Part shown: piece by piece, positions 7,781-64,000 of the stretch
Position numbering within the stretch: the stretch's first letter is position 1
Layout: each line of letters opens with the position of its first letter
Assembly (NCBI GenBank): GCA_946415785.1
Contig: CAMKTV010000001.1
Coordinates: 38,882-102,881 of the forward strand
DNA from: an uncultured Solobacterium sp.
GTDB lineage: Bacteria; Bacillota_I; Bacilli_A; Erysipelotrichales; Erysipelotrichaceae
Direction: 5' to 3'
Length of the DNA stretch: 64,000 nt
Notes under the pieces: model-generated
What the model saw: only the letters and a program-made list of their open reading frames with translations
Database searches by the model: none
Told to the model about the DNA's origin: nothing
Translations under genes and position numbers: made by a program

Positions 7781-9054
7781 GCGAAAAAGAAATCATTTCT
7801 TTTATTGAAGATAGACCTTGGGTGAGATCATCTGATCGATTAGAGAAGATGAGTCTTATTTTAAAAGAACTTCATAATCCGCAAAAGAAATTAAAATATA
7901 TTCATGTCGCTGGTACTAATGGTAAAGGGTCATGTTGCGCATTACTTACAAGTATTCTAATTGACAGCGGTTATAAAGTAGGTACTTATACTTCTCCTCA
8001 TTTAATTAAATATAATGAGCGTTTCTGTATAAACAATATTCCTGTTTCTAATAAAGAATTAGGTTTAATAATAAAAGATTTAAAACAAGCATTTAAAAGA
8101 TTGGATTTTGTGCCAAGTGTTTTTGAAACACTTACAGCGATTGCCTTTGAATATTTTAAAAGAGAAAAAGTAGATGTCGTTGTTTTAGAAGTTGGCTTAG
8201 GTGGCAGATACGATGCTACAAATATCATTGATAAATCACAATTAAGTATTCTTATGAATATTGGCCTTGAACATACAGAAGTATTGGGTAAGACTTTAGA
8301 AAAGATTGCTTATGAAAAGTCTGGCATCATTAAGGAAAATGGTGATGTTTTATCTTATGACAATTCAAAAAAAGTAATTAAAGTATTTAAAGAAGTAGCT
8401 AAAGAAAAAAAGGCCAGATTAAAAGTTGTGAACTTTGATTTAATAAAGATCAAAGAAGAAGGATTAGATCATCAGATTTTTGATTATGGTCATTTAAAGA
8501 ATATTGAATTAGGCTTATTGGGAAGGCATCAATTCTATAATGCTGCTGTAGTCATTGAAGCGATAAAGATATTAAGAAAAAAGGGCTACAACATTTCTAA
8601 TGATAATTTAAGAAATGGTTTAAAAAATGTTAAGTGGAATGCACGATTAGAGATATTATCTAAAAATCCTTTGTTTATTTTAGATGGTGCTCATAATCCT
8701 CAATGTGTCAGTGCTTTGAAAAAATCTTTACCATTTTTAATCGGAAAGAAAAAAGCTTATTTTATATTTGGAAGTTTAACTGATAAAGATTATCTTAAGA
8801 TGATTGATATGATGGCTCCTTACGCGAAAGAATTTATCTGTTTTGCGCCAAATTCAAATAGAGCCCTAAAAGCATCTAAATTAGCTATGATAATTAAAAA
8901 GAAGGGTATTAAGGCTACTTGTGCTTCTTCTTGTCTAGAAGCTATTGAAAAAGCTTATAAGAAAACTAAAAAAGATGATGTGATAATTGCTTTTGGTTCT
9001 TTATATTTAGCTGGTGAAATAAAAGATGAATTTAATAAATATCTTGGCTTATAA
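7777..9054 (+). CDS. folC: Folylpolyglutamate synthase / dihydrofolate synthase
   Basis: Mur-ligase P-loop HVAGTNGKGS, the motifs LEVGLGGRYDATN and DGAHNP. Confidence 0.9.
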   Translation: MSEKEIISFIEDRPWVRSSDRLEKMSLILKELHNPQKKLKYIHVAGTNGKGSCCALLTSILIDSGYKVGTYTSPHLIKYNERFCINNIPVSNKELGLIIKDLKQAFKRLDFVPSVFETLTAIAFEYFKREKVDVVVLEVGLGGRYDATNIIDKSQLSILMNIGLEHTEVLGKTLEKIAYEKSGIIKENGDVLSYDNSKKVIKVFKEVAKEKKARLKVVNFDLIKIKEEGLDHQIFDYGHLKNIELGLLGRHQFYNAAVVIEAIKILRKKGYNISNDNLRNGLKNVKWNARLEILSKNPLFILDGAHNPQCVSALKKSLPFLIGKKKAYFIFGSLTDKDYLKMIDMMAPYAKEFICFAPNSNRALKASKLAMIIKKKGIKATCASSCLEAIEKAYKKTKKDDVIIAFGSLYLAGEIKDEFNKYLGL

Positions 9055-48377: not shown

Positions 48378-48519
48378 TTAATTCTCCTTTCTTCTTTTTA
48401 ACACACAATCACAAGTGTGCCATAATCTTGCTTTATATATAGATCCTTTCGGATCTAACAGCCTTATAATAATATAACGAAAAAAATAAAAATACAAGCG
48501 TTTTTTGCGAAATGTTATA

Positions 48520-48786
48520 ATGTTAGAGAAAATGAAGTTAAGAAGTGATTTTATCAGTCAGGAATTAAATGACAGTATTATCTTAGTGCCACTTGATGGT
48601 TATTTTAAAGGTGTCATTAAAGTAAATGAAAGTGCTGCTTTTATTATTGATTGTCTAAAAGAAGAAACAACTGTTGAAGAAATAAAAAGTAAGTTAATGG
48701 CTAAATACAACATTGATGAAAAAGAGGCAGAAAATAGTGTAAAAAAGATAATTGATAAACTTCAAGAAATTAATGCTTTAATATGA
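48520..48786 (+). CDS. PqqD-family (RiPP recognition element-like) small protein
   Basis: About 85-89 aa. The pattern L..DS.ILV.L.G......V.KVNESAAFI...L.EE.TVEEI...L...Y.IDE.EAE..V...I..L matches PqqD/RRE-type winged-helix proteins. The start is uncertain (ATG 48520 or 48532, TTG 48505). An extended -10-like TGtTATAAT lies at 48513-48521. Confidence 0.7.
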   Translation: MLEKMKLRSDFISQELNDSIILVPLDGYFKGVIKVNESAAFIIDCLKEETTVEEIKSKLMAKYNIDEKEAENSVKKIIDKLQEINALI

Positions 48787-49517
48787 TAGATTTTAAGATT
48801 TCTTTAGCTGGCCTATGTATTGGTGTCAGAGCTAATTATGCAAGTACAGAAGAATTTTGTAAGGATTATAAAGTAGATGAAGATCCTGTTTTTGCTGTGG
48901 AAGTCACTTTACAAGATATCGAAAATGAAAGACAGATCTCTTATGTTCAAAGTGAAAGAGAAAAGGGAAAAAGAATTGAATATCCAAATGAATATTTAGA
49001 AAGATTAGCTTTATATCGAAAAATAGTTGTGAAGATAATTGATTATGATGCCTTTTTATTTCATAGTTCTATCATCGCTGTTGATGGTCTGGCCTATGCT
49101 TTTTCTGCTAAATCAGGTACAGGGAAAACGACCCATACAAGATTTTATTTAGAAAAGATAGAAGGTGCCCATGTCTTGAATGGTGATAAGCCGTTATTAA
49201 GAATAATTGATGATAAGGTTTATGCCTGTGGAACTCCATGGCAGGGAAAAGAAAATTTTGGAACCAATGAAATCCTTCCATTAAAAGCTATCTGCTTATT
49301 GCAAAGAGGAAGTGAAAATGAAATCGAAGAGATTAAGTTTTCACAAGGCTTTAATGATATTGTCCAACAAGCATATCATAATGCAGAAGGTGATTTTTTA
49401 GCTAAATCAATTCAATTAATTTTACGACTTCAAAATAAAATAAAAGTATATCGCTTAAAATGTAACCTTGACCCTAATTCAGCGATTATAAGTTATAATT
49501 TTATAAGAGACAACTAA
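48783..49517 (+). CDS. HPr-kinase-like P-loop protein (ScmC / lasso-peptide-kinase-like)
   Basis: FHSSIIAVDGLAYAFSAKSGTGKTTH matches the H(A/S)S.V...G.A..F.G.SG.GKST signature of HprK C-domain-like kinases found in RiPP clusters. It overlaps the PqqD-like gene by 4 nt. Confidence 0.65.
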   Translation: MIDFKISLAGLCIGVRANYASTEEFCKDYKVDEDPVFAVEVTLQDIENERQISYVQSEREKGKRIEYPNEYLERLALYRKIVVKIIDYDAFLFHSSIIAVDGLAYAFSAKSGTGKTTHTRFYLEKIEGAHVLNGDKPLLRIIDDKVYACGTPWQGKENFGTNEILPLKAICLLQRGSENEIEEIKFSQGFNDIVQQAYHNAEGDFLAKSIQLILRLQNKIKVYRLKCNLDPNSAIISYNFIRDN

Positions 49518-49518
49518 G

Positions 49519-50625
49519 ATGGAGAAAAGAAATATCTTAAATAATAAGCTCTATACAAATATGATCTATTTGATTAATTGTGCTTTAAACAATGAAAAAG
49601 TAGATGATGATTTTAATGATGGAGAATTATTGTCTTTAGCCAAAGGGCATCGTTTATCTGCCTTAGTTGCCAGTGCTTTTAAAAAACCAAATTCTAAATG
49701 GGAAAAAGCTTATTTTAAAGCAATAAGAAGAGAAACTCTTTTTGAACAACAAAGAAAAGAAATCACGCAAGCGTTCAGTGAAGAAAAAATCTGGTATTGC
49801 CTATTAAAAGGAATAATCATGAAAGATTATTATCCTAAAGGCTATTTAAGAGAAATGTCTGATAACGATATTCTGATTGATGAGACAAAATGTGAAGAAA
49901 TAAAAAAGATTATGTTAGAAAAGGGCTATCGTTATGAACACGATTATGGTGAACATCATGACGTCTATGTCAAAGAGCCAATCTTTAAATTTGAACTTCA
50001 TCGCAGTTTAATCTCTGAAGAAAAAGAAAAAGAATTCTTTGAATATTTTAAAGATATAAATAAACGTTTAATCAAAGATGAAAATAATGAATATGAATAT
50101 CATCTTAGTAAAGAAGATTTCTATATCTATTCATTTGTCCATACATATCATCATTATGTTTATAATGGAGCAGGCATAAGACATTTAATTGATATTTATT
50201 TATATACAAGCAAGAATGAACTTGATTGGAATTATATAAATAATGAATTAGAAAAATTAGGCATCTTAGAAAAAGAAAGAACTTTTAGAAAGATTGCCTA
50301 TAAATTATTTTCAACATTTGAAGAATTAACTGAAGAAGAAAAAGAACAGTTAGAATTCATGTTTATATCATGTGTTCATGGCTCATATAAAAGCAGAATC
50401 ATGATTATGATGGCAAAAGATAAAGAGAACAATAAGAACTATCGCTTTAAATATCTTCGTGATCGTTTATTATTAGATGACGCCTATCTAAAAGAAAGAT
50501 ATCCATTCTTTTATAAACACCGTGTTGCTTTGCCATTGCTGACTGTATATCGTCTATTCCGTGGCTTATTTAAAGGACATGGAAGACTTAAATGGGAAAT
50601 AAAGAATTTCGTTAAGAATAAATAA
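49519..50625 (+). CDS. Nucleotidyltransferase family protein (NTP_transf_5 / PF14907-like)
   Basis: LLKGIIMKDYYPKGYLREMSDNDILIDE resembles the LKG...Y....R...D(I/L)D(L/I)L active-site region of this family. It starts 1 nt after the previous stop. Confidence 0.6.
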   Translation: MEKRNILNNKLYTNMIYLINCALNNEKVDDDFNDGELLSLAKGHRLSALVASAFKKPNSKWEKAYFKAIRRETLFEQQRKEITQAFSEEKIWYCLLKGIIMKDYYPKGYLREMSDNDILIDETKCEEIKKIMLEKGYRYEHDYGEHHDVYVKEPIFKFELHRSLISEEKEKEFFEYFKDINKRLIKDENNEYEYHLSKEDFYIYSFVHTYHHYVYNGAGIRHLIDIYLYTSKNELDWNYINNELEKLGILEKERTFRKIAYKLFSTFEELTEEEKEQLEFMFISCVHGSYKSRIMIMMAKDKENNKNYRFKYLRDRLLLDDAYLKERYPFFYKHRVALPLLTVYRLFRGLFKGHGRLKWEIKNFVKNK

Positions 50626-54630: not shown

Positions 54631-55014
54631 ATGAGTGAATTTGAAAACAATGCTTATTTTTGGCAAAAAGTAGATGCCGCTTATATGTCAGGTGATTATC
54701 AAGTTATATACAAAAAAGGTAGTAAACACCCAAAACTACCAGAATTAATTTTCCCTTGTGACTATGGGCATGTGAGTACAGGAGGAGACTTTGAAACATC
54801 GTTAAAAGTGTTCAAGGGAAGTAAGAAAGAAACAATTGAAAGTGTTGTTGTTTGTTGTAACTTGCTGGAAAAAGACTTATCAACTATTGTTTTAGTTGGC
54901 GTCACCAATGAAGAAAAAGAAGAAATCTTAAAGTTCCTCAATAGCAATGATTTCCAAAAAACAATCATCTTAAATAGAGGAAAAAACATCCCTAGTTGGG
55001 CAATAGCAGAGTAG
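54631..55014 (+). CDS. Small conserved protein, possibly of the short inorganic-pyrophosphatase-like family
   Basis: FWQK.D......(gap)...G(S)KHPK.P..I(F/Y)P.DYG(H/Y) resembles short Bacillota proteins usually labelled inorganic pyrophosphatase. This is recalled, not verified. Confidence 0.4.
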   Translation: MSEFENNAYFWQKVDAAYMSGDYQVIYKKGSKHPKLPELIFPCDYGHVSTGGDFETSLKVFKGSKKETIESVVVCCNLLEKDLSTIVLVGVTNEEKEEILKFLNSNDFQKTIILNRGKNIPSWAIAE

Positions 55015-55036
55015 CATAGACTACTCTTTAATTTAA
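55008..55036 (+). terminator. Hairpin between the small gene and guaA
   Basis: 7-bp stem agagtag/ctactct with a 6-nt loop, then TTTAATTT. Confidence 0.5.
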
Positions 55037-55052
55037 TAAGGAGAAAAAGAAT

Positions 55053-56024
55053 ATGAAAGATCTAAGACCTAGTACAATGAAACGCATCACAAACAAGAAA
55101 TTAGCTTTAGCTTTTATTGAAAAACAAGTTGAAGAAATCAAGAAGCAAGTTGGTGACAACAAAGTCCTGTTAGCATTATCAGGAGGTGTTGATTCTTCTG
55201 TTGTAGCAGCATTATTAATTAAAGCTATCGGCAAGAATCTGGTATGTGTTCATGTAAACCATGGTTTATTAAGAAAAGGTGAGTCTGAACAAGTTATTGA
55301 TGTATTTAAAAAACAATTAGGTGCAACATTAATATATAGAAATAAAACTAATTTATTCTTAGATAACTTAAAAGGTGTAAGTGATCCAGAAAAGAAAAGA
55401 AAGATTATTGGTAAGATCTTTATTGATGTTTTCGCTGAAGAAGCAAAGAAATTGAAAGGGATCAAATATTTAGCCCAAGGAACAATCTATCCAGATATTT
55501 TAGAATCAAAGGGTGTTAAAGCTCATCATAATGTAGGCGGCCTACCTAAATCATTAAAATTTGAATTAGTAGAACCAGTTAAATTCTTATACAAAGATGA
55601 AGTAAGAGTTGTCGGCGAGGCATTAGGCTTACCAAAATCAATGGTATATCGTCAACCATTCCCAGGACCAGGCCTAGGAGTAAGATGTGTTGGCGCTATT
55701 ACTAAAGATAGATTAAACGCATTAAGAGAAGCAGATGCTATTGTTAGAGAAGAGATTGGCAAATTAGAAAAAACACCTTGGCAATATTTTTGTGTAATTC
55801 CTGATTTAAAATCAACAGGTATTAAAGATGGCAAGAGATATATGGGTTGGGCAGCTATCATTAGAGCGATAAACACTAAAGATGCAGTAACTGCCAAATC
55901 ATTTGAAATCCCATATAAAACACTTTATAAGATCAGAGATCGTATCATTAAAGAAGTTCCTGGCGTCAATAGAGTATTATGGGATTATAGTGATAAACCA
56001 GTAAGCACTATTGAGTGGGAATAA
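55053..56024 (+). CDS. guaA: GMP synthase, ATP-pyrophosphatase plus dimerisation domains only (no glutamine amidotransferase domain)
   Basis: N-type PP-loop LALSGGVDSSV, the motifs AQGT.YPD..ES, HHNVGGLP and R.PFPGPGL..R, and the canonical C-terminus IEWE. At 323 aa it starts right at the synthetase domain. Confidence 0.88.
   Translation: MKDLRPSTMKRITNKKLALAFIEKQVEEIKKQVGDNKVLLALSGGVDSSVVAALLIKAIGKNLVCVHVNHGLLRKGESEQVIDVFKKQLGATLIYRNKTNLFLDNLKGVSDPEKKRKIIGKIFIDVFAEEAKKLKGIKYLAQGTIYPDILESKGVKAHHNVGGLPKSLKFELVEPVKFLYKDEVRVVGEALGLPKSMVYRQPFPGPGLGVRCVGAITKDRLNALREADAIVREEIGKLEKTPWQYFCVIPDLKSTGIKDGKRYMGWAAIIRAINTKDAVTAKSFEIPYKTLYKIRDRIIKEVPGVNRVLWDYSDKPVSTIEWE
56001..56024 (+). repeat. att-like copy A, the genuine 3' end of guaA
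   Basis: gta agc act att gag tgg gaa taa (VSTIEWE*). The core GAGTGGGAATA lies at 56013-56023. Confidence 0.9.
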
Positions 56025-56043
56025 GCACAGTATATATAAATAA

Positions 56044-56100
56044 AAAATGCAACGTATTTAAATGCGTTGCATTTTCGTAGCAAAAATGCTACGATTTTTA
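56044..56100 (+). terminator. Two tandem hairpin terminators downstream of guaA
   Basis: A near-perfect 16-nt palindrome aaaatgcaacgtattt/aaatgcgttgcatttt, then an 8-bp stem tcgtagca/tgctacga followed by TTTTTA. Confidence 0.7.
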
Positions 56101-56113
56101 TAGAGGTGTTGCG

Positions 56114-57370
56114 ATGAAAAAAGAGAATAAATATTTAGAATATAAGGAAAAGCAAACTAAAACATATTTAAAAACAGTATGTGCTTTTGCGAATTATCAC
56201 GATGGTGAAATAATCTTTGGAATAAGCGACGACTATAAGGTTTTGGGTATTGATAATCCAAAAGACTTTTGTTTAAATCTAGAAAATCAAATAAACGATT
56301 CAATTAAACCAAAACCAGATTACACACTAAAGATTAATAAAGACACCACTGTAACTTTATATGTTAAGAAAAGCCTATCAACTCCTTATATGTATAATGG
56401 TAAAACTTATAAAAGAAACGATTCATCTACAATCGAAGTGGATGAATTAGAACACAAAAGATTAACATTAGCAGGAATGAACCAAAATTATGAAGAACTT
56501 GCTTCTAATAAACAAGATTTAACTTTTGATATATTAAAGAAAAATCTTAAAGAAAAAATAAATATCAAAACTTTTAATCAAGATACTTTAAGAAGCTTAA
56601 ATTTATTTAATGACGATATTGGTTATAACATCGCAGCATCATTGCTAGCAGACATTAACAAATGTCCAGGTTTAGATATTGTTGTTTTTGGATCTTCAAT
56701 AAGCGATATAAAAAGAAGAAAAACTTTAAATAATCAATCTATTATCAAACAATATTACGAAGCATTAAAGATATTTGAAGAAGAGTATGTTAGTGAAGTT
56801 GTAGATAATGGTTTTAGAAAAAAAGTTGAGAAAATACCATATGATGCTTATAGAGAAGCAATAGCTAATGCTTTGATTCATAGAGTGTGGGATGTAAACG
56901 CTAATACTAAAGTAGAAATGTATCCAGACAGAATCGTTATTTCTTCACCTGGCGGATTACCTCAAGGAATTAGCGAAGAGCAATACAAAAAAGGAACATT
57001 TTCACTACTGAGGAATCCAATAATTTCTAATGTGTTTTATAGACTAAATATTGTAGAAATATTCGCTACAGGAATAAAGAGAATAAATGAACTATATAGA
57101 GAATCTATGTCTAAGCCAATATATGATGTAATGGAACAAGCAATAAGCATTACGCTTCCTCTATACAACATTAATACACTTTCTAAAAACGAAGAGTTAA
57201 TTTTTAGTTCAATGCAAGCAAATCAAAAATATAAGAGAGAAGAATTACAAACGATAACTGGATTAAGCAAAGATAAAGTTATTAGAGCAATTCCTATGTT
57301 ACTAAAAAGAAATTTGATAAATAAAGAAGGAGAAGGCAAAGCAACTATTTATATAAGGACTGACAAATAA
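56114..57370 (+). CDS. AlbA_2 (Schlafen-like divergent AAA) plus HATPase_c_4 plus wHTH protein
   Basis: The N-terminus is YLEYKEK....YLKTVCAFANYHDGEIIFGISDD (AlbA_2). The central region REAIANALIHRVWD....KVEMYPDRIVISSPGGLP ... RNPIISNVF..L.IVE..ATGIKRI matches HATPase_c_4. The C-terminus is winged-helix-like. Confidence 0.8.
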   Translation: MKKENKYLEYKEKQTKTYLKTVCAFANYHDGEIIFGISDDYKVLGIDNPKDFCLNLENQINDSIKPKPDYTLKINKDTTVTLYVKKSLSTPYMYNGKTYKRNDSSTIEVDELEHKRLTLAGMNQNYEELASNKQDLTFDILKKNLKEKINIKTFNQDTLRSLNLFNDDIGYNIAASLLADINKCPGLDIVVFGSSISDIKRRKTLNNQSIIKQYYEALKIFEEEYVSEVVDNGFRKKVEKIPYDAYREAIANALIHRVWDVNANTKVEMYPDRIVISSPGGLPQGISEEQYKKGTFSLLRNPIISNVFYRLNIVEIFATGIKRINELYRESMSKPIYDVMEQAISITLPLYNINTLSKNEELIFSSMQANQKYKREELQTITGLSKDKVIRAIPMLLKRNLINKEGEGKATIYIRTDK

Positions 57371-57486
57371 GTCGTGCTCCCTTCTATGCTCCCCAAAATC
57401 TTAGTAAATAGAGATAATAAATATAAAATCAAGGATACTAGCATATAAATGTATATAATATAAGCAACTAGATATACGTGATATAA

Positions 57487-57510
57487 GGTAGTGCCATCGA
57501 GTGGGAATAA
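57487..57510 (+). repeat. att-like copy B (most diverged)
   Basis: ggt agt gcc atc gag tgg gaa taa, readable as GSAIEWE*. There is a 12-nt exact match to the guaA end (gagtgggaataa) plus partial matches upstream. Confidence 0.5.
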
Positions 57511-57521
57511 TCGAATATATG

Positions 57522-57549
57522 AAATAAGCCTTTAAATAAAGGCTTATTT
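57522..57549. terminator. Hairpin just after att-like copy B
   Basis: Hairpin aaataagcc-tttaaataaa-ggcttattt. Confidence 0.55.
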
Positions 57550-57617
57550 GATGGTTTTGTAAAATTTTGAGTAAAATCTGAGTAAATTTTGATGATTAAT
57601 ATAAAAAATTGAAATAT

Positions 57618-57663
57618 ATGTGCCGAAAAATAGGAAACAAATGTGCCGAAAAATAGGAAACAA
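57618..57663. repeat. Perfect 23-bp direct tandem repeat (2 copies)
   Basis: ATGTGCCGAAAAATAGGAAACAA occurs at 57618-57640 and again at 57641-57663, just upstream of the TA promoter. Confidence 0.95.
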
Positions 57664-57681
57664 ATAATTTGTTTATAAACA

Positions 57682-57710
57682 TTGAAAGTGTATGACATAT
57701 GACATACAAT
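57682..57710 (+). promoter_or_regulatory. Putative TA-operon promoter with direct-repeat operator
   Basis: TTGAAA (57682-87), a 17-nt spacer and TACAAT (57705-10). The spacer holds two abutting ATGACAT heptamers (57692-98 and 57699-705). Confidence 0.5.
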
Positions 57711-57728
57711 AATAGTGAGGTAGGAGCA

Positions 57729-57935
57729 ATGATATCAATTAGACTTAACGAAAATATTGAAAAACAATTAAAAGAAGTTGCTGAATTTGAAGGAGTCAGC
57801 ATATCTGATTATGTTAGAGATTTAATAACGGAAAAACTAGAAGATATGTATGATTTAAAAGTAGCTGAACAAGCTCATAAAGATTATGTAAAAAGTGGTA
57901 AGAAAACATACACATTTGATGAGGTTTTTAAATAG
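57729..57935 (+). CDS. Ribbon-helix-helix antitoxin (RelB/CopG-like)
   Basis: MISIRLNENIEKQLKEVAEFEGVSISDYVRDLI is a typical RHH N-terminus. GAGGTAGGAG lies upstream of ATG 57729. The ORF-track start at 57699 is less likely. The stop abuts the toxin ATG. Confidence 0.8.
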   Translation: MISIRLNENIEKQLKEVAEFEGVSISDYVRDLITEKLEDMYDLKVAEQAHKDYVKSGKKTYTFDEVFK

Positions 57936-58202
57936 ATGAAATATACGCTTGTATTTTCAAGTAGATGTAAAAAAGAAATATCTAAATTAGATAATTCGAC
58001 AAAGAAACTTCTTAAAGGATGGATTTTAAACCATTTAATTAATTGCGATAATCCTAGAGCGACGGGCAAATCATTAACTGGAAATAAAACCGGCTATTGG
58101 CAATATCGCGTTGGTAACTATAGATTGATTGTTGAAATAAAAGATAAAGAATTAATTGTGTTAGCGATTACTTTTAGTCATAGATCGGAAGTGTATAAGT
58201 AG
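57936..58202 (+). CDS. RelE/ParE-superfamily toxin (RelE/StbE type)
   Basis: 88 aa. The motifs (K)L.G...GYWQYRVGNYRLIVEI.D.ELIVLAI.F.HRSEVY are present. Confidence 0.85.
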   Translation: MKYTLVFSSRCKKEISKLDNSTKKLLKGWILNHLINCDNPRATGKSLTGNKTGYWQYRVGNYRLIVEIKDKELIVLAITFSHRSEVYK

Positions 58203-58257
58203 ATACAGTTAAATAAATATATAAAGTTTAATAATAGATTATAAAGAGGAGAAACTT

Positions 58258-60138
58258 ATGAATCCACTATCACCAAAAACGATTGAAAAAAGGTTTAAAG
58301 AAGCAGGTATAACTCTTAATGAAAGAGAATTATTGCATAGGTATATGCTATGCTTTTCTAATTTGTATGGTTGCATAGAGATAGGTGTACTATGGAATGT
58401 TTTTAAATCATATAAAGAAAACATTACTATGAATAAATTCTATGACTATGTTGATATAGCTCAAAGAATGGATACTGATTTTTATATTTTAAATTTAAAT
58501 GAGGTTTATACAGGAGAAACAAGTGAAGAAACAGAAAATAAACTATTAGTTAATAAATATCTAGTAAGAAGATTTGAATTGAAGTTTTGGTATATCTATC
58601 AATTAGAAGAGTATAAAGATGAAAAATTTGGACCATACATTCCTTCAAAAGAAGAACTATTTAGATTTGACCATGATGTTTTTTATGACAATGAAATTGG
58701 TAGAAAAATGGTATCTTTGATTTCAAATCTTAAAACATCAGGAATAAGTACTAATAAAATTAATAAAAAAGAGATCGAGATGATTGATATAAACGGTAAT
58801 AAATGTAAAGGTAAAAGATTAGCTGATATTATTTATTTCGATAGATATGAACAATCATCAATAGATTATTTTAAGAGACCTAATGAAAAAGAGTATCAAA
58901 TAAAAAAGGCAAGCATACCAAGCGCTAAAAAGATTTTAAATGAAATTAAAAATTGTATTATGATTTATGATACCGATGTTTATATGAATAGACTTAATTA
59001 TATCTTAGAGAAGATTAATTATGATTTAGGTGTTGAATTCACAGAAGAATTTTTAAATGAATTTATGGCATTATTTATGGAATTATCAAATAACTCTAAT
59101 AGATGGAATATATTTGGTTGGAAGCCTAATATGCTTAGTACTATGGTACCTAAACATGATGGTCCAATAAAGCTATCAATCGGTCCAAATATGCGAAAAA
59201 TGATTGAAGATGGTGAATACGATTTAGGTGAAATGGATAAATTTTTTAAGGACAATAATCAAAATGTAATTATTGATGATGAAGAAAAAGATGATTATGA
59301 AAAAATCATCAAAAAGAATAATCTTTATCTTGAAGAATTTAGAGATTTTTTAATAAAGAGAAATTATCGAGAAAGTATAATCGATAAGCACATCTCTAGA
59401 GTTGTATATTATATAAATCACTATCTAATGCATGGAATTCCAAAGAATATGGAAGATGGATGTGGCCTTGATGTTATGAGCTTTATAGAAGATTGTGTTA
59501 ATAGAAAACATTTTCCTGCCAGTGTTCACAATATTGATTTTTATCTAGTAAGCATATCGTTGTTTTATGAATGTATGTGTGAAAAAGGACGAATTTCAAA
59601 AAATGTTTTAAAAGAGTTTAAAAAAGATATTACATCTTTTAAAGACGAACTTGTTGAAGACTATTATGATTGTAACCCAAAAGAAATTGATATCTATGAT
59701 GTAATTGAAGCTATTGAAATGGCAAATGGTTATGGTACGGCATATATGAATATTAAGACAGGTGAAAAGGTCTTTATACCAGAAGAGGAATCGTTATATG
59801 ACGGAGATTTAGATGAATTATATGATAGAATCGATACTCCTAATTGGGTGGAAATTCCTGAAATAAAAGATTATAAAATAATGATGAATTTCGCCAGTCA
59901 AGTTAAAGATAAGAATATATCTAATACATTAATTGGTATTCTTAAAAATAAACATTCATATCGAAATTTTAAAAACGCCATATTTGATATGAATATTGAA
60001 GATGAGTACTACGATTATTATGATGAACAGATTTATCAGATAGCAGAAGATTGGTTAGATGAGAATTGTGTTAATGAATTAATCGATGATTATGATGAAG
60101 ATATTGTTTTTGAAAGCGACAATAATACAAAACATTAA
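58258..60138 (+). CDS. Orphan 626-aa protein with a UPF0158-like C-terminal region
   Basis: Strong RBS (AGAGGAGAAA). The cytoplasmic middle segment LEEFRDFLIKRNYRESIIDKHISRVVYYINHYL resembles a recombinase core-binding/SAM-like helix bundle. The C-terminus (IPE..DYKIMMNFA......L...L......YRNFKNAI...........YY....) resembles UPF0158. Both assignments are tentative. Confidence 0.6.
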   Translation: MNPLSPKTIEKRFKEAGITLNERELLHRYMLCFSNLYGCIEIGVLWNVFKSYKENITMNKFYDYVDIAQRMDTDFYILNLNEVYTGETSEETENKLLVNKYLVRRFELKFWYIYQLEEYKDEKFGPYIPSKEELFRFDHDVFYDNEIGRKMVSLISNLKTSGISTNKINKKEIEMIDINGNKCKGKRLADIIYFDRYEQSSIDYFKRPNEKEYQIKKASIPSAKKILNEIKNCIMIYDTDVYMNRLNYILEKINYDLGVEFTEEFLNEFMALFMELSNNSNRWNIFGWKPNMLSTMVPKHDGPIKLSIGPNMRKMIEDGEYDLGEMDKFFKDNNQNVIIDDEEKDDYEKIIKKNNLYLEEFRDFLIKRNYRESIIDKHISRVVYYINHYLMHGIPKNMEDGCGLDVMSFIEDCVNRKHFPASVHNIDFYLVSISLFYECMCEKGRISKNVLKEFKKDITSFKDELVEDYYDCNPKEIDIYDVIEAIEMANGYGTAYMNIKTGEKVFIPEEESLYDGDLDELYDRIDTPNWVEIPEIKDYKIMMNFASQVKDKNISNTLIGILKNKHSYRNFKNAIFDMNIEDEYYDYYDEQIYQIAEDWLDENCVNELIDDYDEDIVFESDNNTKH

Positions 60139-60233
60139 ATTATGATGATTAGTAAATAAAAAAGCAATTAGAGAAATTCTAGTTATTAATAGAATGTTGT
60201 GAAGTAAAAGCGATAAAACATCAACTATTTATA

Positions 60234-60266
60234 AGTGATAAAGTATCAACTATTGAGTGGGAATAA
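60234..60266 (+). repeat. att-like copy C (extended guaA 3' mimic)
   Basis: agt gat aaa gta tca act att gag tgg gaa taa (SDKVSTIEWE*). Compared with guaA 55989-56024 (agt gat aaa cca gta agc act att gag tgg gaa taa), it has a 3-nt gap and a synonymous Ser change, and the last 18 nt are identical. Confidence 0.85.
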
Positions 60267-60425
60267 AAGTACATTTAATGGGGGCAAAATATATCGTCCC
60301 TTTTAAGTCTTTTGAATTTGAAAATAATAATGATAATCTGAACAAGGCATGAAAACATGAGAGGATGGCTTTTTGTTATTCCACCAGGATGTTTTAGGGC
60401 TGTTAGTTAAAAAGAGGGCAGAAAT

Positions 60426-60641
60426 ATGGAAGATTTCAAATATCAAAATGATTTTGAAAAAGCTATTGCTGCTTCTTTAAATCATAATAGTGACATCGAT
60501 TCAACAGGAGCAGTTACTGGTAACATAGTTGGACCATTCTTGGGGTATGATAAAATACCTCATAAATATTTAAACAATTTAGAATTAAAAGAAGAAATAC
60601 TAGATATATCAAAAGATTTATTTATATTGAGACAAGAATAG
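60426..60641 (+). pseudogene. C-terminal remnant of an ADP-ribosylglycohydrolase-family gene
   Basis: This 71-aa ORF carries only the C-terminal metal-site region (NSDIDSTGAVTGNIVGPFLGYDKIPHKYL). Full-length family members are about 250-350 aa, and an in-frame stop lies at 60408-10. Confidence 0.6.
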
Positions 60642-60749
60642 ACATGAAGCATCACATGAATCAAAAATAATCATACATATATTTTCTATCATGTTAAATT
60701 ATTAAAGATTTTACCAAAGTGAAGTTTTTATTGGATATAGGTATTGGCC

Positions 60750-60777
60750 TTGCAAATTTATAAATAATTAGTAATAT
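60750..60777 (+). promoter_or_regulatory. Putative promoter of the 630-aa gene (possibly a leaderless mRNA)
   Basis: TTGCAA (60750-55), a 16-nt spacer and TAATAT (60772-77). ATG 60782 lies 5 nt downstream and has no SD. Confidence 0.35.
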
Positions 60778-60781
60778 ATTT

Positions 60782-62674
60782 ATGATGAATAATGATTATC
60801 TTATAGCTAAAAAACTAGGTGATAAAGATTTTCACCGTTTAATAAATGAAAAGAAAGACCCTTTCTTAAAATCTTTGGAAGATGAGGTTAAAAATCTTTA
60901 TATTTTAAGTAAACAATATGTTGGAACTTTTGATATACCTTTGCATATGATAGTCGGCACCGTAAATAACTTAAGAAAAAGATCTTTTGCGGAAAACTTT
61001 ATGCCTATTATGAATGAAAATAGTGAATTTGCTTATAAATGGAATAATCTATTTGAAAGTCAAGTTAATGAAGGCATCAATGAGCCTATAAAGGTTTATG
61101 AATATCTACAAAACTTTTATGTAATAGAAGGCAATAAAAGAGTTTCGGTTATGAAATTTCTTAATAATTTTGCGATTCGAGCAGAAGTTATTAGAGTTTT
61201 ACCAGAAAGAAACAGCGATAATGAATTGTATTATGAGTTTTTAGATTTTTATTCAGTAGCGCCTATCTATGAAATTGTTTTTTCTAAAAAAGGTGGTTTT
61301 AAAGAATTAGCTAAATATTTAAATAAAGATCTAAATTCACCTTGGCCAATTGAATTAGTTAGAGAATTAGAAGCTTCATTTTTAAGATTTTATTCCATTT
61401 TTATGGAAAAGGGTGGATATCAATTGTCAATGACAGCTGCCGATGGACTCCTTTTATATTTAAAAACATATTCAATTGATTCTTTACTAGACAAATCGAG
61501 AAACATCTTAGAGAATCGTATGAATTTAATGTGGAATGAGTTTTTAAGTAGTGATAACAATGAATTTCTTTTAAAAAGCACCTCATATAATCAAAAAAAT
61601 TGGGATATACTACATTTATTTAACAAACCACCTTATGATGAAAAGCATCCTTTAAAAGTAGCTTTCATTCATAATGATGATGAAAAAGCCTTATGGATAA
61701 AAGAACATGTTAAGGGTGCGAATTATATAAATAATGTTTTTGAAAATATTGTATTATGTAAGAATTATTTTAATTGCGATAGCGATAATGCTGTAAAAAA
61801 AGCAGTAGATGAAGCGATTTCTTGGGGTGCTAAAGTTATTTTTGGAACCTCTTCAACAATTGTATACAGCTTATTAAATAAGGCGCTTGAACATAAAGAT
61901 ATAAAGTTTTTTGATTGTGCCTTAAATATTAAAAGTAACGCTATTGCGACATACTATGGAAGAATGTTTGAAGCAAAGTTTTTGATGGGTATTTTAGCTG
62001 CTCAATTAGCTGATAATCATAAAATTGCCTATATAGCTGATGCACCAGTTTATGGAACTATAGCAAATTTAAATGCTTTTGCCCTTGGCGTATCAACAAT
62101 TGATCCTAAAGCCTTAGTTTATGTTGATTGGAGCGGCAAAAAAGATTTTGATTACAACAACTTTATATTAAAAAACGATATTAAAGTTATATCTGGAAAA
62201 GATAGCGAAGAAGAAAATGCGACCTATGGAGTATATAAGATAAATGAGGATGGAACATATTCGAATTATGGAAGTGCTTATTTTAAGTGGGGCAAATATT
62301 ATGAGTTAATTCTCAAACCAATTATTTATGGCAATAATGAGATTAATGAAAATGATATAGCATCATTATATTGGTGGGGAATTAAAGAAGGTGTTTTAGA
62401 TATAAGATTATCAAAAGAATTATCATATTATTCTTTAAAGACTATCAATGGATTTAAAAACGAAATCATATCTGGATATTATTCAATCTTTGAGGGTAAG
62501 CTAATTAGTCAAGAAGGAATAATCGCAAGAGAATTTGAAACATTAGACTATAAACAAATAATTGGCATGGATTGGTTAAACGACAACATTGTCGGTATAA
62601 TACCAAAAATAAGTGAACTTAATGATGGAAGTCAAAAGCTATTTGAAGTAAGTGGAATAAGAGTTAAAAAATAA
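60782..62674 (+). CDS. Cytoplasmic ParB/Srx-like N-domain plus helical linker plus BMP (PnrA-type periplasmic-binding-protein fold) C-domain protein
   Basis: No signal peptide. The N-terminal segment PIKVYEYLQNFYVIEGNKRVSVMKFL resembles the ParB/sulfiredoxin-fold (D/E)G.(H/K)R motif. The C-terminal half (KVAFIHNDDE... GAKVIFGTSS... ATYYGRMFEAKFLMGILAA... IAYIADAPVYG.IANLNAFALG) resembles BMP-family nucleoside-binding proteins. Confidence 0.6.
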   Translation: MMNNDYLIAKKLGDKDFHRLINEKKDPFLKSLEDEVKNLYILSKQYVGTFDIPLHMIVGTVNNLRKRSFAENFMPIMNENSEFAYKWNNLFESQVNEGINEPIKVYEYLQNFYVIEGNKRVSVMKFLNNFAIRAEVIRVLPERNSDNELYYEFLDFYSVAPIYEIVFSKKGGFKELAKYLNKDLNSPWPIELVRELEASFLRFYSIFMEKGGYQLSMTAADGLLLYLKTYSIDSLLDKSRNILENRMNLMWNEFLSSDNNEFLLKSTSYNQKNWDILHLFNKPPYDEKHPLKVAFIHNDDEKALWIKEHVKGANYINNVFENIVLCKNYFNCDSDNAVKKAVDEAISWGAKVIFGTSSTIVYSLLNKALEHKDIKFFDCALNIKSNAIATYYGRMFEAKFLMGILAAQLADNHKIAYIADAPVYGTIANLNAFALGVSTIDPKALVYVDWSGKKDFDYNNFILKNDIKVISGKDSEEENATYGVYKINEDGTYSNYGSAYFKWGKYYELILKPIIYGNNEINENDIASLYWWGIKEGVLDIRLSKELSYYSLKTINGFKNEIISGYYSIFEGKLISQEGIIAREFETLDYKQIIGMDWLNDNIVGIIPKISELNDGSQKLFEVSGIRVKK

Positions 62675-62675
62675 A

Positions 62676-63311
62676 ATGAGGATATTGGCCTTATCTGACA
62701 AAGAAGATCTTGGATTGTGGAATTATTATGCACCCGAAAAAGTTGAAGGTGTTGATTTAATAATTGCCTGTGGTGATTTAAAAAAAGACTATCTAGAATT
62801 TCTTGTGACAATGATAAACAAGCCTCTTTTATATGTAAATGGTAATCATGATAGATTTAATGATAATTATTATCCAGAGGGTTGTGAAAATATTGATGGT
62901 AAATTATTCCTATTGAATGATCTTAGAGTTTTAGGGCTTGGAGGATCAAACAAATATAGTGATGAAGCAATAAATATGTATAGCCAAAAACAAATGAAAA
63001 AAAGAGTAAATAGAATTAAAAAGAACATTAAAAGTAATAATGGTTTTGACATACTTGTAGCTCATGCGCCAATTAAAGGATATGGCGATCAAGAAGATAT
63101 TGCTCATCAAGGATTTGAAGTGTTTGAAGATTTAATAAATCAATATAAACCAAAAATAATGTTACATGGGCATATCCATAGAGAATATGGAAATTTTCAA
63201 AGAATTATTAATCATCCAAGTGGTACTACTTTGATCAATTGTTTTGAATCAGTAATATTTGATATTGACTTTAAAAAAGATAAAAACAATATTGCTTTTC
63301 ATCGCTTTTAA
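62676..63311 (+). CDS. Calcineurin-like metallophosphoesterase
   Basis: The motifs are MRILALSD (motif I), ACGDL (motif II), GNHD (motif III), VAHAP and GH.H. It starts 1 nt after the previous stop. Confidence 0.8.
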   Translation: MRILALSDKEDLGLWNYYAPEKVEGVDLIIACGDLKKDYLEFLVTMINKPLLYVNGNHDRFNDNYYPEGCENIDGKLFLLNDLRVLGLGGSNKYSDEAINMYSQKQMKKRVNRIKKNIKSNNGFDILVAHAPIKGYGDQEDIAHQGFEVFEDLINQYKPKIMLHGHIHREYGNFQRIINHPSGTTLINCFESVIFDIDFKKDKNNIAFHRF

Positions 63312-63322
63312 ACTATTTGTTC

Positions 63323-63346
63323 GTAAGTACTATTGAGTGGGAATAG
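63323..63346 (+). repeat. att-like copy D (distal boundary)
   Basis: gta agt act att gag tgg gaa tag (VSTIEWE* with a TAG stop). 22 of the 23 nt match guaA 56001-56023. Confidence 0.85.
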
Positions 63347-63524
63347 TAAGAACTGTCATTCTACACTTAAATATATTCCAAATTTTACATTCAAATATAT
63401 TTTCGTAGGATAACTCAACCTAGACATAAACAAATATTATTGGCTCTTGTTTATTCTTTAAGAAGAAAGAAAGATAAATATCCAATTATTAAAGCAACAT
63501 TTTTTATTAAGATTATCTAGAATT

Positions 63525-63548
63525 AAAGTCCTTAGCTAAGGATTTTTT
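63525..63548 (+). terminator. Terminator distal to the att array (possibly the ancestral guaA terminator)
   Basis: Hairpin aaagtcctt-agct-aaggatttt followed by a T-run. Confidence 0.6.
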
Positions 63549-63575
63549 AGGTTATAATTTTACTTGAGGTAAATT

Positions 63576-64000
63576 ATGAAAAAAGAGTTTTTTAAAAAGG
63601 ATTTAAAAGAGATTCTAAGTTTTATCAATTCAGAAATTAAAAAACATAAGCTTAAAAAGAGTGAAGAAAATAGAGCATCTTTAATGGTTGAAGAAACTTT
63701 AATGACGCTAATTGAACATACTAATGAGGACACTATTACAATTAATACAAGTTATTTAGGTGGAATATTTAAGATAAAAATAGTCTCTAAGGGCGAAGCC
63801 TTTGACCCATTATCAGTAAGCGACTATGATCCAATAAGAGAAGCTCTGATGAAGTCTTTTGCGGAAGACATTCAAACTAGGCACCACAAGAATACTAATA
63901 TCATCACGATAACTGCTTATAAATCAAGATATATACTTCTTTATCGATTGATAGCTTGGGGCCTTGCGGGCTTGTTGCTGTCATTATTAATTAAAAACTT
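63576..64000 (+). CDS. Hypothetical protein, 3'-truncated by the window edge (soluble N-domain followed by a TM helix)
   Basis: ATG 63576 lies behind TGAGGT. The frame stays open to the end of the window (141 codons) and ends in the hydrophobic stretch YILLYRLIAWGLAGLLLSLLI. It is absent from the ORF track because it has no stop. Confidence 0.6.
   Translation, partial: MKKEFFKKDLKEILSFINSEIKKHKLKKSEENRASLMVEETLMTLIEHTNEDTITINTSYLGGIFKIKIVSKGEAFDPLSVSDYDPIREALMKSFAEDIQTRHHKNTNIITITAYKSRYILLYRLIAWGLAGLLLSLLIKN

Follow-up and report, generated by a model that had tools for sequence, protein, structure and literature searches.

The stretch of DNA analysed here (the window, 64,000 nt of contig CAMKTV010000001.1 from an uncultured Solobacterium sp.) carries two adjacent genes encoding a large protein of 630 amino acids (aa) and a metallophosphoesterase of 211 aa. 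This gene pair is an obligate unit that is widely conserved among bacteria of the gut and rumen and has so far been uncharacterised. The large protein joins an N-terminal region with a predicted ParB/sulfiredoxin fold to a C-terminal BMP-type ligand-binding domain, and with its partner it is probably an undescribed ParB-fold fusion module, a nucleotide- or nucleoside-sensing switch acting with a hydrolase. Both genes are intact. In the open reading frame (ORF) list of the window they occupy 60782..62674 (630 aa) and 62676..63311 (211 aa), both on the + strand and 1 nt apart, and the tightly coupled arrangement between the att-like repeats C and D is present just as a preliminary description of this DNA had given it. 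The parts of the pair are listed below.

60782..61207, + strand: residues 1-142 of the 630-aa gene, predicted N-terminal helix and ParB/sulfiredoxin-fold nucleotide-binding core with the motif E116-G-N-K-R-V-S122 (models, Foldseek)
61208..61561, + strand: residues 143-260 of the 630-aa gene, acidic helical domain at the place of the ParB helix-turn-helix (HTH) domain (Foldseek alignments)
61649..62656, + strand: residues 290-625 of the 630-aa gene, BMP/PnrA-type periplasmic-binding-protein fold of the purine-binder subgroup (Pfam, family profile, Foldseek)
62676..63311, + strand: 211-aa metallophosphoesterase with D8xE10, G33D34, G56NHD59, H130 and G165HxH168 (Pfam, family alignment)

Linkage of the two genes was examined at 85 genome loci, three of which run into contig ends. 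In all 82 testable loci the phosphoesterase gene lies immediately 3' of the large gene, mostly with a 4-nt overlap whose usual form is ATGA. The reverse test used 80 metagenome loci found with the phosphoesterase profile. Six of these have too little flank, and 70 of the 74 testable ones have the large gene next to the phosphoesterase gene: 68 directly upstream by tblastn and 2 on inspection (L135, with a short C-terminal fragment of it, and L126, with the two genes convergent). A solo phosphoesterase is present in the other four loci (L111, L146, L151 and L170), and the surrounding genes are the same in L146 and L151. The two proteins have also diverged together, as their pairwise-distance matrices correlate with r = 0.69 over 57 non-redundant pairs, a value reached in 0 of 2000 permutations. 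The preliminary description had made its proposal depend on co-variation of the two genes, and they are found both to co-occur and to co-vary.

Relatives of the large protein number in the thousands and are named 'BMP family ABC transporter substrate-binding protein' in the databases. When one genome per species was scanned, at least 591 species-level genomes were found to carry a relative, the carriers including Lachnospiraceae, Oribacterium, Solobacterium and other Erysipelotrichaceae, Acutalibacteraceae and many Collinsella. A profile of the N-terminal domain collects 448 clusters (50% identity) at E <= 1e-30, and because most of these are about 620-690 aa in length the domain seems to be essentially always fused to the BMP domain.

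Some members of the family depart from the usual layout. In L126 (626-1529) the large gene is located 3' of the phosphoesterase gene in convergent orientation, which is the sole rearranged pair seen. In the metagenome locus L150 (1-4687) the two genes of the pair are separated by an insert of two further genes. Judged from N-terminal sequence only, the product of one has a dinucleotide-binding motif and is possibly a flavoprotein, and the other is cytidylate kinase (cmk)-like by its P-loop N-terminus; ispH- and rpsA-like genes follow. This insert is a possible hint of a cytidine-nucleotide link (n = 1). A subclade of the large protein (P0076, P0085 and P0105) has 200-270-aa C-terminal tails that are rich in Ala, Glu and Lys and coiled-coil-like. 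Members of 848-904 aa were considered as natural fusions of the two partner proteins, and this was rejected, their extra length consisting of Ala/Glu/Lys-rich low-complexity tails.

A family alignment and profile of 46 members was made for the large protein, and an AlphaFold2 model of the full-length 630-aa protein was built on this alignment. The model has a mean predicted local distance difference test (pLDDT) score of 89.6 and a predicted template-modelling score (pTM) of 0.83, and a separate AlphaFold2 model of residues 1-262 has a pLDDT of 94. All 15 PDB matches of the N-terminal region at E <= 0.001 in Foldseek are ParB, Noc, KorB, pNOB8-ParB or sulfiredoxin structures. The best match is Noc (7ol9, E 5.8e-06), and Myxococcus ParB (7bnk), KorB (8qa9), PadC and sulfiredoxin (6ky4) are also matched. 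The same region of the full-length model likewise matches Noc, ParB and sulfiredoxin, and a viral structure library also returns ParB/sulfiredoxin proteins for it. The ParB, Noc and KorB alignments cover 215-246 columns and include both the core and the helical domain, and therefore the helical domain (residues 143-260) stands at the place of the ParB HTH domain. This domain is acidic (median isoelectric point (pI) 5.0, median net charge -5), as is the entire protein with its pI of about 5.2. On the basis of these models, residues 1-260 are predicted to be a ParB/Noc/KorB-like domain with a sulfiredoxin-like core.

The motif E116-G-N-K-R-V-S122 is invariant in the family, with G117-N-K-R120 identical in 46 of 46 sequences. 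Profile alignment sets GNKR over the GCHR of sulfiredoxin, a sequence match which is itself non-significant (E 0.52). Detection of ParBc at the sequence level was tried and rejected: Pfam ParBc (PF02195) gives no match for the window protein at E <= 0.1 nor in any of 16 family N-terminal regions at E <= 10, and the PDB profile search gave the non-significant sulfiredoxin match only. No Pfam HTH match was found in the window protein and the 16 N-terminal regions either. The preliminary description had read a ParB/sulfiredoxin-like N-terminus from the letters and had let its idea stand or fall with that fold; the fold is borne out by the predicted structure, although Pfam ParBc is silent.

The C-terminal half is matched by Pfam Bmp (PF02608) at residues 305-569 (E 9.6e-14, 51.5 bits versus a curated cutoff of 24.1), and the family profile over residues 284-621 matches the purine binders AtzT (6pi5, E 1.5e-52) and 3s99 from Brucella (E 3e-51). 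The same two structures lead the Foldseek matches of this domain (template-modelling (TM) scores of 0.78-0.79, normalised to the target). The nucleoside binders PnrA, BmpD and Lbp come next, and PurR and LacI-type repressors are among the weaker structure matches. The R-x-x-E, N-A-F, W-G-x-Y-Y and W-W-G motifs of AtzT/3s99-type binders are retained. A hydrophobic N-terminus, signal peptide or lipobox is present in none of the 46 family members, and the large protein is predicted to be cytoplasmic. The assignment of this half to the BMP/PnrA type, lacking any export signal, is thereby confirmed. The domain is a type-I periplasmic-binding-protein domain whose origin lies among binders of purines and nucleosides.

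In AtzT, guanine is contacted by Tyr45, Ser97, Glu165, Trp194, Asn218 and Asn220 (PMC6834077). Pocket positions of the family were mapped from the published AtzT contacts through the profile alignment and counted by column in the 46 sequences, as follows.

AtzT Tyr45 (stacking aromatic): W305, in 43 of 46
AtzT Ser97: S357, in 39 of 46
AtzT Asn169: N429, in 30 of 46
AtzT Glu165: G425, Gly in 46 of 46
AtzT Asn218 and Asn220: K473 and S475, not kept
AtzT Trp194: no counterpart, the segment being absent

N431 is identical in 46 of 46 sequences. Together with W305, S357 and G425 it belongs to the positions homologous to the guanine contacts of AtzT, and these rank among the most conserved ones. A conserved S471-G472-x-D474 motif is present in place of the lost AtzT contacts. 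Judged from these columns, the BMP pocket is under selection, with a predicted specificity that differs from that for free guanine.

The 211-aa protein scores above the cutoffs for both Pfam Metallophos and Metallophos_2. Four canonical metal motifs (GD, GNHD, H and GHxH) are invariant throughout the family, whereas motif I is D8-x-E10 in place of the canonical DxH; the earlier statement that all canonical metal motifs are present holds for the former and fails for the latter. Invariant motifs that are specific to this family are PEGC and GYGDxxDxxHxGF. Among proteins of solved structure, MPPED2 (E 3e-5) and Dbr1 come nearest in sequence, both as weak matches, and the YfcE-type match reaches 28 bits versus a 56-bit cutoff. 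The PADLOC single-gene candidate PDC-S10 is matched with 64 bits (E 2.7e-18, 189 of 223 profile positions), and phage phosphoesterase PHROGs are also matched. By their scores, the PDC-S10, PHROG and MPPED2/Dbr1 matches indicate distant paralogy and not family membership.

Clustering of ORFs at the 85 loci found no neighbour conserved between lineages apart from the partner gene, and synteny is lineage-specific only. An annotated record of Collinsella aerofaciens shows the pair with an MscS-type channel gene on one side and rplA-rplK-nusG-secE-rpmG-tuf on the other, and the same syntenic site is occupied in more than 50 Collinsella species-level genomes. The neighbours are epimerase, PPIase and DnaJ genes in Chordicoccus, glycogen phosphorylase, lgt, queA and pheST in one Lachnospiraceae, TauE, PRD antiterminator and amylase genes in one Erysipelotrichaceae, and citrate synthase, isocitrate dehydrogenase, Mnh antiporter and UDG genes elsewhere. 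A pooled scan of 135 flanking proteins from 35 diverse loci, which is a limited sample and not a genome-wide statistic, gave 139 Pfam families, none with more than 4 occurrences. In the same set 11 PADLOC models are matched at E <= 1e-10, most of them by one protein and none by more than 4, and neither a complete PADLOC system nor a ParA was found. A conserved BMP-type permease or ATPase near the pair was found neither by the 85-locus clustering nor by the 35-locus scan. Outside the window the surroundings of the pair are housekeeping genes; they follow neither the pattern of a defence system nor that of a nucleoside-salvage transporter operon. The preliminary description had held that its idea would fail if homologues lay mainly in housekeeping contexts such as nucleoside-salvage operons with ABC permeases; the housekeeping contexts are there, and no such salvage operons were found.

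We propose that the pair is a cytoplasmic ParB-fold switch that binds nucleoside triphosphate (NTP) and carries a ligand-binding BMP domain, working with the phosphoesterase in nucleotide-related physiology, and we place the chances of this proposal at about even. Both proteins would be translated from one message. The BMP cleft would bind a purine-like base, a nucleoside or a nucleotide-derived ligand, and the ParB-fold domain would bind NTP. Together the two domains would form a ligand-gated switch in complex with the phosphoesterase, controlling or directing that enzyme, and the phosphoesterase, presumably binuclear, would hydrolyse a phosphorylated small molecule or nucleotide. The role of such a unit would lie in the nucleotide homeostasis or signalling of its own cell and not in phage defence. 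A more far-reaching version, in which the pair would be the first ParB-type NTP switch gated by a cytoplasmic periplasmic-binding-protein domain and controlling a dedicated phosphoesterase, and conceivably also anti-phage when mobilised, is put forward only tentatively and seems rather doubtful.

Several observations weigh against the proposed switch. NTP binding by the N-domain is argued from the fold and a GxxR-type motif, the PF02195 sequence search is blind to the family, and Box III of ParB (ENxxR) is not recognisable in the 46-member alignment. In the BMP cleft several of the guanine-specific ligands of AtzT are changed (Glu165 to Gly, Asn218 and Asn220 lost, Trp194 segment missing), and therefore the ligand might not be a purine. 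Motif I of the phosphoesterase is DxE rather than DxH throughout its family, the enzyme is similar to the defence candidate PDC-S10 (64 bits), and the pair lies near mobile or defence-type genes in both the window and L001.

The last two points also bear on a different explanation, an anti-phage or abortive-infection pair in which the large protein would sense an infection-derived nucleotide or nucleoside and activate a phosphoesterase degrading nucleic acids or nucleotides. The preliminary description had inferred a defence module from the location of the pair. The gene pair shares its islet array with genes for a ParE/DUF6290 toxin-antitoxin system and for a Schlafen AlbA_2 protein, the 99%-identical copy in the related species adjoins an element of the insertion sequence (IS) family IS3 and a type I restriction-modification system, and the block was transferred recently. 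The matches of the phosphoesterase to PDC-S10 (E 2.7e-18) and phage PHROGs would also suit this explanation, as would family members in a virome 'Podoviridae sp.' record and an unverified 'Bacteriophage sp.' contig. However, the large protein has no match in PADLOC-DB v2, where the phosphoesterase matches PDC-S10 only (64 bits), which agrees with the earlier remark that the pair corresponds to no named defence system. The PADLOC matches among the 135 flanking proteins are scattered and mostly single-component with no recurring defence family, and the contexts elsewhere are housekeeping ones. The synteny in more than 50 Collinsella genomes fits vertical inheritance of a core gene and not the turnover of a defence island. 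Most of the large protein is held by 1 of 50,697 phage records, the unverified virome contig, and by two plasmid records only, a 900-kb Collinsella replicon and a Subdoligranulum fragment, so that it is nearly absent from both. The inference from location is thus not sustained by the neighbour scan, the Collinsella site or these records; a phage-defence reading of the pair is not supported, and we consider it unlikely. The virome-derived family members are MT836456.1 1630-3528 (L176, the unverified 'Bacteriophage sp.') and the fragment A0A8S5LUW4 ('Podoviridae sp.') in BFVD, whose structure matches the N-terminal region with a TM score of 0.89.

Phosphotransferase precedents within the fold are sulfiredoxin and an archaeal ParB-fold serine kinase, and the pair could accordingly be read as metabolic enzymes: a sulfiredoxin-like phosphotransferase would act on a small molecule held by the BMP domain and the phosphoesterase would remove or process the phosphate, in purine-like salvage or modification. 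Sulfiredoxins are among the best local core matches (6ky4, TM 0.66-0.67 normalised to target; 3cyi with ATP), the putative BMP pocket residues are strongly conserved, both proteins are acidic, soluble and enzyme-like, and a cytidylate-kinase-like gene lies between the two genes in L150. However, the catalytic Cys of sulfiredoxin is replaced by Asn (GNKR versus GCHR), ParB, Noc and KorB head the structure matches whereas the serine-kinase-type 1vk1 is matched weakly (E 0.02), and no conserved metabolic neighbours indicate a pathway in the scan of 35 loci, which leaves such an enzyme pair a little less likely again than phage defence. Somewhat further down we place a ParB/KorB-like DNA-binding regulator with the logic of LacI/PurR, whose BMP domain would sense a purine and which would regulate transcription, including that of the phosphoesterase gene. 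It would be in keeping with the Noc, ParB and KorB alignments running through the HTH DNA-binding domain (215-246 columns) and with PurR/LacI-type repressors among the weaker C-domain matches, but it is made improbable by the acidic nature of the helical domain (pI 5.0, charge -5) and of the whole protein, the absence of a Pfam HTH match, a superposition with a root-mean-square deviation (rmsd) of 14-20 A, which implies a relative domain placement unlike that of ParB-family structures, and the strict translational coupling to the enzyme in all lineages, unusual for a regulator and its target. The database annotation, finally, would make the large protein a mis-located extracellular substrate-binding protein of an ABC transporter. 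The source names say so and the C-domain is a genuine BMP fold; yet a signal peptide or lipobox occurs in 0 of 46 members, the BMP domain is preceded by 290 aa of ParB-fold region, the neighbourhood has no conserved BMP-type permease or ATPase, and the constant partner is a cytoplasmic phosphoesterase. A transporter component is contradicted by these data and hardly credible.

In the window the pair is flanked by the following features, given here with the block that contains it; MAG stands for metagenome-assembled genome.

60242..60266, + strand: att-like repeat C, which repeats the 3' end of guaA and bounds islet 3 on the left (direct-repeat family D1)
60426..60641, + strand: remnant of an ADP-ribosylglycohydrolase gene, C-terminal ~70 aa only (Pfam/NCBIfam profiles)
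60712..63325, + strand: transferred block of 2.6 kb, promoter region and both genes (blastn against related Erysipelotrichaceae MAGs)
60750..60777, + strand: possible promoter TTGCAA-16 nt-TAATAT (read from the sequence, kept in L001)
63322..63346, + strand: att-like repeat D, which bounds islet 3 and with it the entire islet array on the right (25-nt direct repeat)

In related Erysipelotrichaceae MAGs a block with 98.2% nucleotide identity to the segment 60712-63325 lies at another chromosomal locus (blastn against L001, L003, L004 and L005). The shared block consists of 70 nt upstream, both genes and 14 nt past the stop. Core flanks of the block-sharing species are only 80-88% identical to the window, and therefore the block has been exchanged recently. 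The guaA protein of this species is 91% identical to that of the window and is encoded apparently on the same 385-kb contig. In the related MAGs the block is bordered by an IS3-family element on one side and by a convergent FtsX/ABC pair on the other; in L001 the IS3-family element abuts the left homology edge, and the right edge shares 11 nt including the FtsX stop codon. The DNA upstream of the IS3 element differs by MAG, with a type I restriction-modification system and an uncharacterised 646-aa protein in some and a patatin and an adenosine deaminase in another (L001 8400-9930; L003). The position of the element and these differences suggest an IS-mediated rearrangement at the L001/L003 locus.

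The 16-nt core CYATYGAGTGGGAATA of the 25-nt direct repeat occurs in 4 copies in the window, all on the + strand, against a chance expectation of 0.01. The copy that comes first forms the end of guaA, the gene of a 323-aa GMP synthase ATP-pyrophosphatase (55053..56024, protein end ...TIEWE*). Four direct copies of the guaA end bound three integrase-less islets (window 56000-63346), and no recombinase was identified for this array in the window, L093 and L094. The close relative L094, with flanks 96.5% identical, has a single different islet with TMEM164 and MgtC followed by an att copy (L094 10972-12744) and then the same SDF-transporter gene as at 63435-64000 of the window; the window realigns with the post-islet sequence of L094 from 63323 and with the SDF-transporter gene from 63435 at 98.9%. 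Exact look-ups of the guaA product of the window, with two alternative starts, and of the near-identical P0388 gave no match, and the relatives P0402 and P0392 served in its place. In L093, from the species with the 91% identical guaA protein, three att copies enclose radical-SAM/SPASM, Sel1, DnaJ-like and HIRAN genes (L093 10958-20934). Segments of 60-120 nt just 3' of att copies B and C of the window also occur in the L093 islets, and window 60244-60327 is 92% identical to an att copy and its flank in the L093 hot spot. The pair is thus a passenger in a guaA 3'-end hot spot and not at its native site. The mobile hot spot with turnover of cargo that had been described earlier stands, since relatives carry other cargo at the same guaA site.

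The 71-aa ORF 60426..60641 matches 42 positions at the C-terminal end of the Pfam ADP_ribosyl_GH profile (245-286 of 287, E 4.6e-10) and the C-termini of Tri1 and DraG in NCBIfam, and a stop codon breaks the in-frame sequence upstream. Because only the C-terminus of the profile is matched and the upstream frame is stopped, it is a gene remnant, in agreement with the decayed fragment of the preliminary description.

The TAATAT hexamer ends 4 nt 5' of the ATG of the 630-aa gene, and no Shine-Dalgarno sequence lies upstream; the preliminary description had taken a nearby -10 box and the missing Shine-Dalgarno sequence as signs of a possibly leaderless gene. However, promoter-like matches in this AT-rich stretch are no commoner than in shuffled sequence, and a Shine-Dalgarno sequence is present in most homologues, so that leaderless expression of the 630-aa gene is unproven. 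In the two Erysipelotrichaceae lineages examined (window 60772-60784; L018 ~7988-8006) the start codon follows 4-6 nt after a -10-like hexamer, and a Shine-Dalgarno sequence is lacking. Leaderless translation may be a trait of an Erysipelotrichaceae clade.

Other genes of the region were noted in passing. guaA is here the ATP-pyrophosphatase part alone (323 aa) with no adjacent glutamine amidotransferase domain (window 54631-56024); an amidotransferase subunit would have to be encoded elsewhere. A 127-aa ORF upstream of guaA has no Pfam match and yet is kept in relatives (126-127 aa in L093 and L094). The islet 1 protein (56114-57370, + strand) combines Schlafen AlbA_2 with HATPase_c_4; it has weak PADLOC matches to SIR2- and pAgo-associated models and a strong match to the PHROG 'DNA helicase' (E 7.5e-47). 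The 626-aa protein of islet 2 (58258-60138, + strand) has no match in Pfam, NCBIfam, PADLOC and PHROGs, and its gene lies directly 3' of the DUF6290 (RelB-like)/ParE toxin-antitoxin pair (57699-58202). A cluster of PqqD, ScmC-like (faint) and NTP_transf_5 genes at 48400-50625, between rpsL and GNAT/queH, looks like one for a ribosomally synthesised and post-translationally modified peptide; it is also present in L094 (3466-5571) and absent from the corresponding place in L093.

ParB-CTPase folds are versatile NTP switches that have been reused through domain fusion. The family described here adds to them a ParB-fold architecture that is invisible to Pfam-based surveys, its N-domain having no Pfam model, in which a predicted NTP-binding switch is joined to a purine-type ligand-binding domain and an obligate hydrolase partner. 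A 2025 survey of ParB-CTPase fusions was probed with PF02195 (10.1101/2025.10.10.680097), and because PF02195 does not detect the family such a survey would have missed it. The words 'Bmp', 'substrate-binding' and 'phosphoesterase' are absent from the main text of that survey, its supplementary tables lying outside this check, and nucleotide specificity is stated there to be not reliably predicted by sequence or AlphaFold 3. We found no description of a ParB-fold/BMP architecture with a phosphoesterase in the literature. If the more far-reaching version of the proposal is true, the pair would represent a novel type of module for nucleotide sensing or signalling, spread widely among Firmicutes of the human gut and the rumen as well as in Collinsella. 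The annotation needs correction in any case, as these proteins are not ABC-transporter substrate-binding proteins and the family, frequent in abundant genera of the gut and rumen, bears the misleading label everywhere. With two ligand sites and an enzyme partner the module is directly testable in vitro.

Among known systems, the ParB-CTPase family (ParB/Spo0J, Noc, KorB, PadC) is alike in the predicted fold of residues ~40-260 and in sequence layout, with 'EIPL..I.GT.T..R..F', a helix, two strands and G-x-x-R (EGNKRVS here versus GERRxRA). Canonical ParB differs in its basic HTH domain, Box III ENxxR, C-terminal dimerisation domain and ParA partner, none of which was found here; a BMP domain stands at the place of the dimerisation domain and the partner is a metallophosphoesterase instead of ParA. 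Locally the core superposes best on sulfiredoxin (6ky4, over 88 columns with an rmsd of 2.6-3.9 A and 23-24% identity), but that protein has a catalytic Cys where Asn is present here, and the pair has no peroxiredoxin context. The AtzT, 3s99, PnrA and BmpD binders are homologous across residues 284-621 and differ by a lipoprotein signal and an ABC permease, both of which are lacking here. The LacI/PurR regulators have a similar logic, an N-terminal module that handles nucleic acid or nucleotide followed by a type-I periplasmic-binding-protein sensor, by analogy only, as homology is limited to the periplasmic-binding-protein fold; their N-terminal module is another one, and there is no evidence of DNA binding for the large protein. 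The YfcE/MJ0936-type, MPPED2 and PDC-S10 phosphoesterases are related to the small protein, but with scores far below family level, and the enzyme described here has its own motifs and a partner of ParB-fold/BMP architecture.

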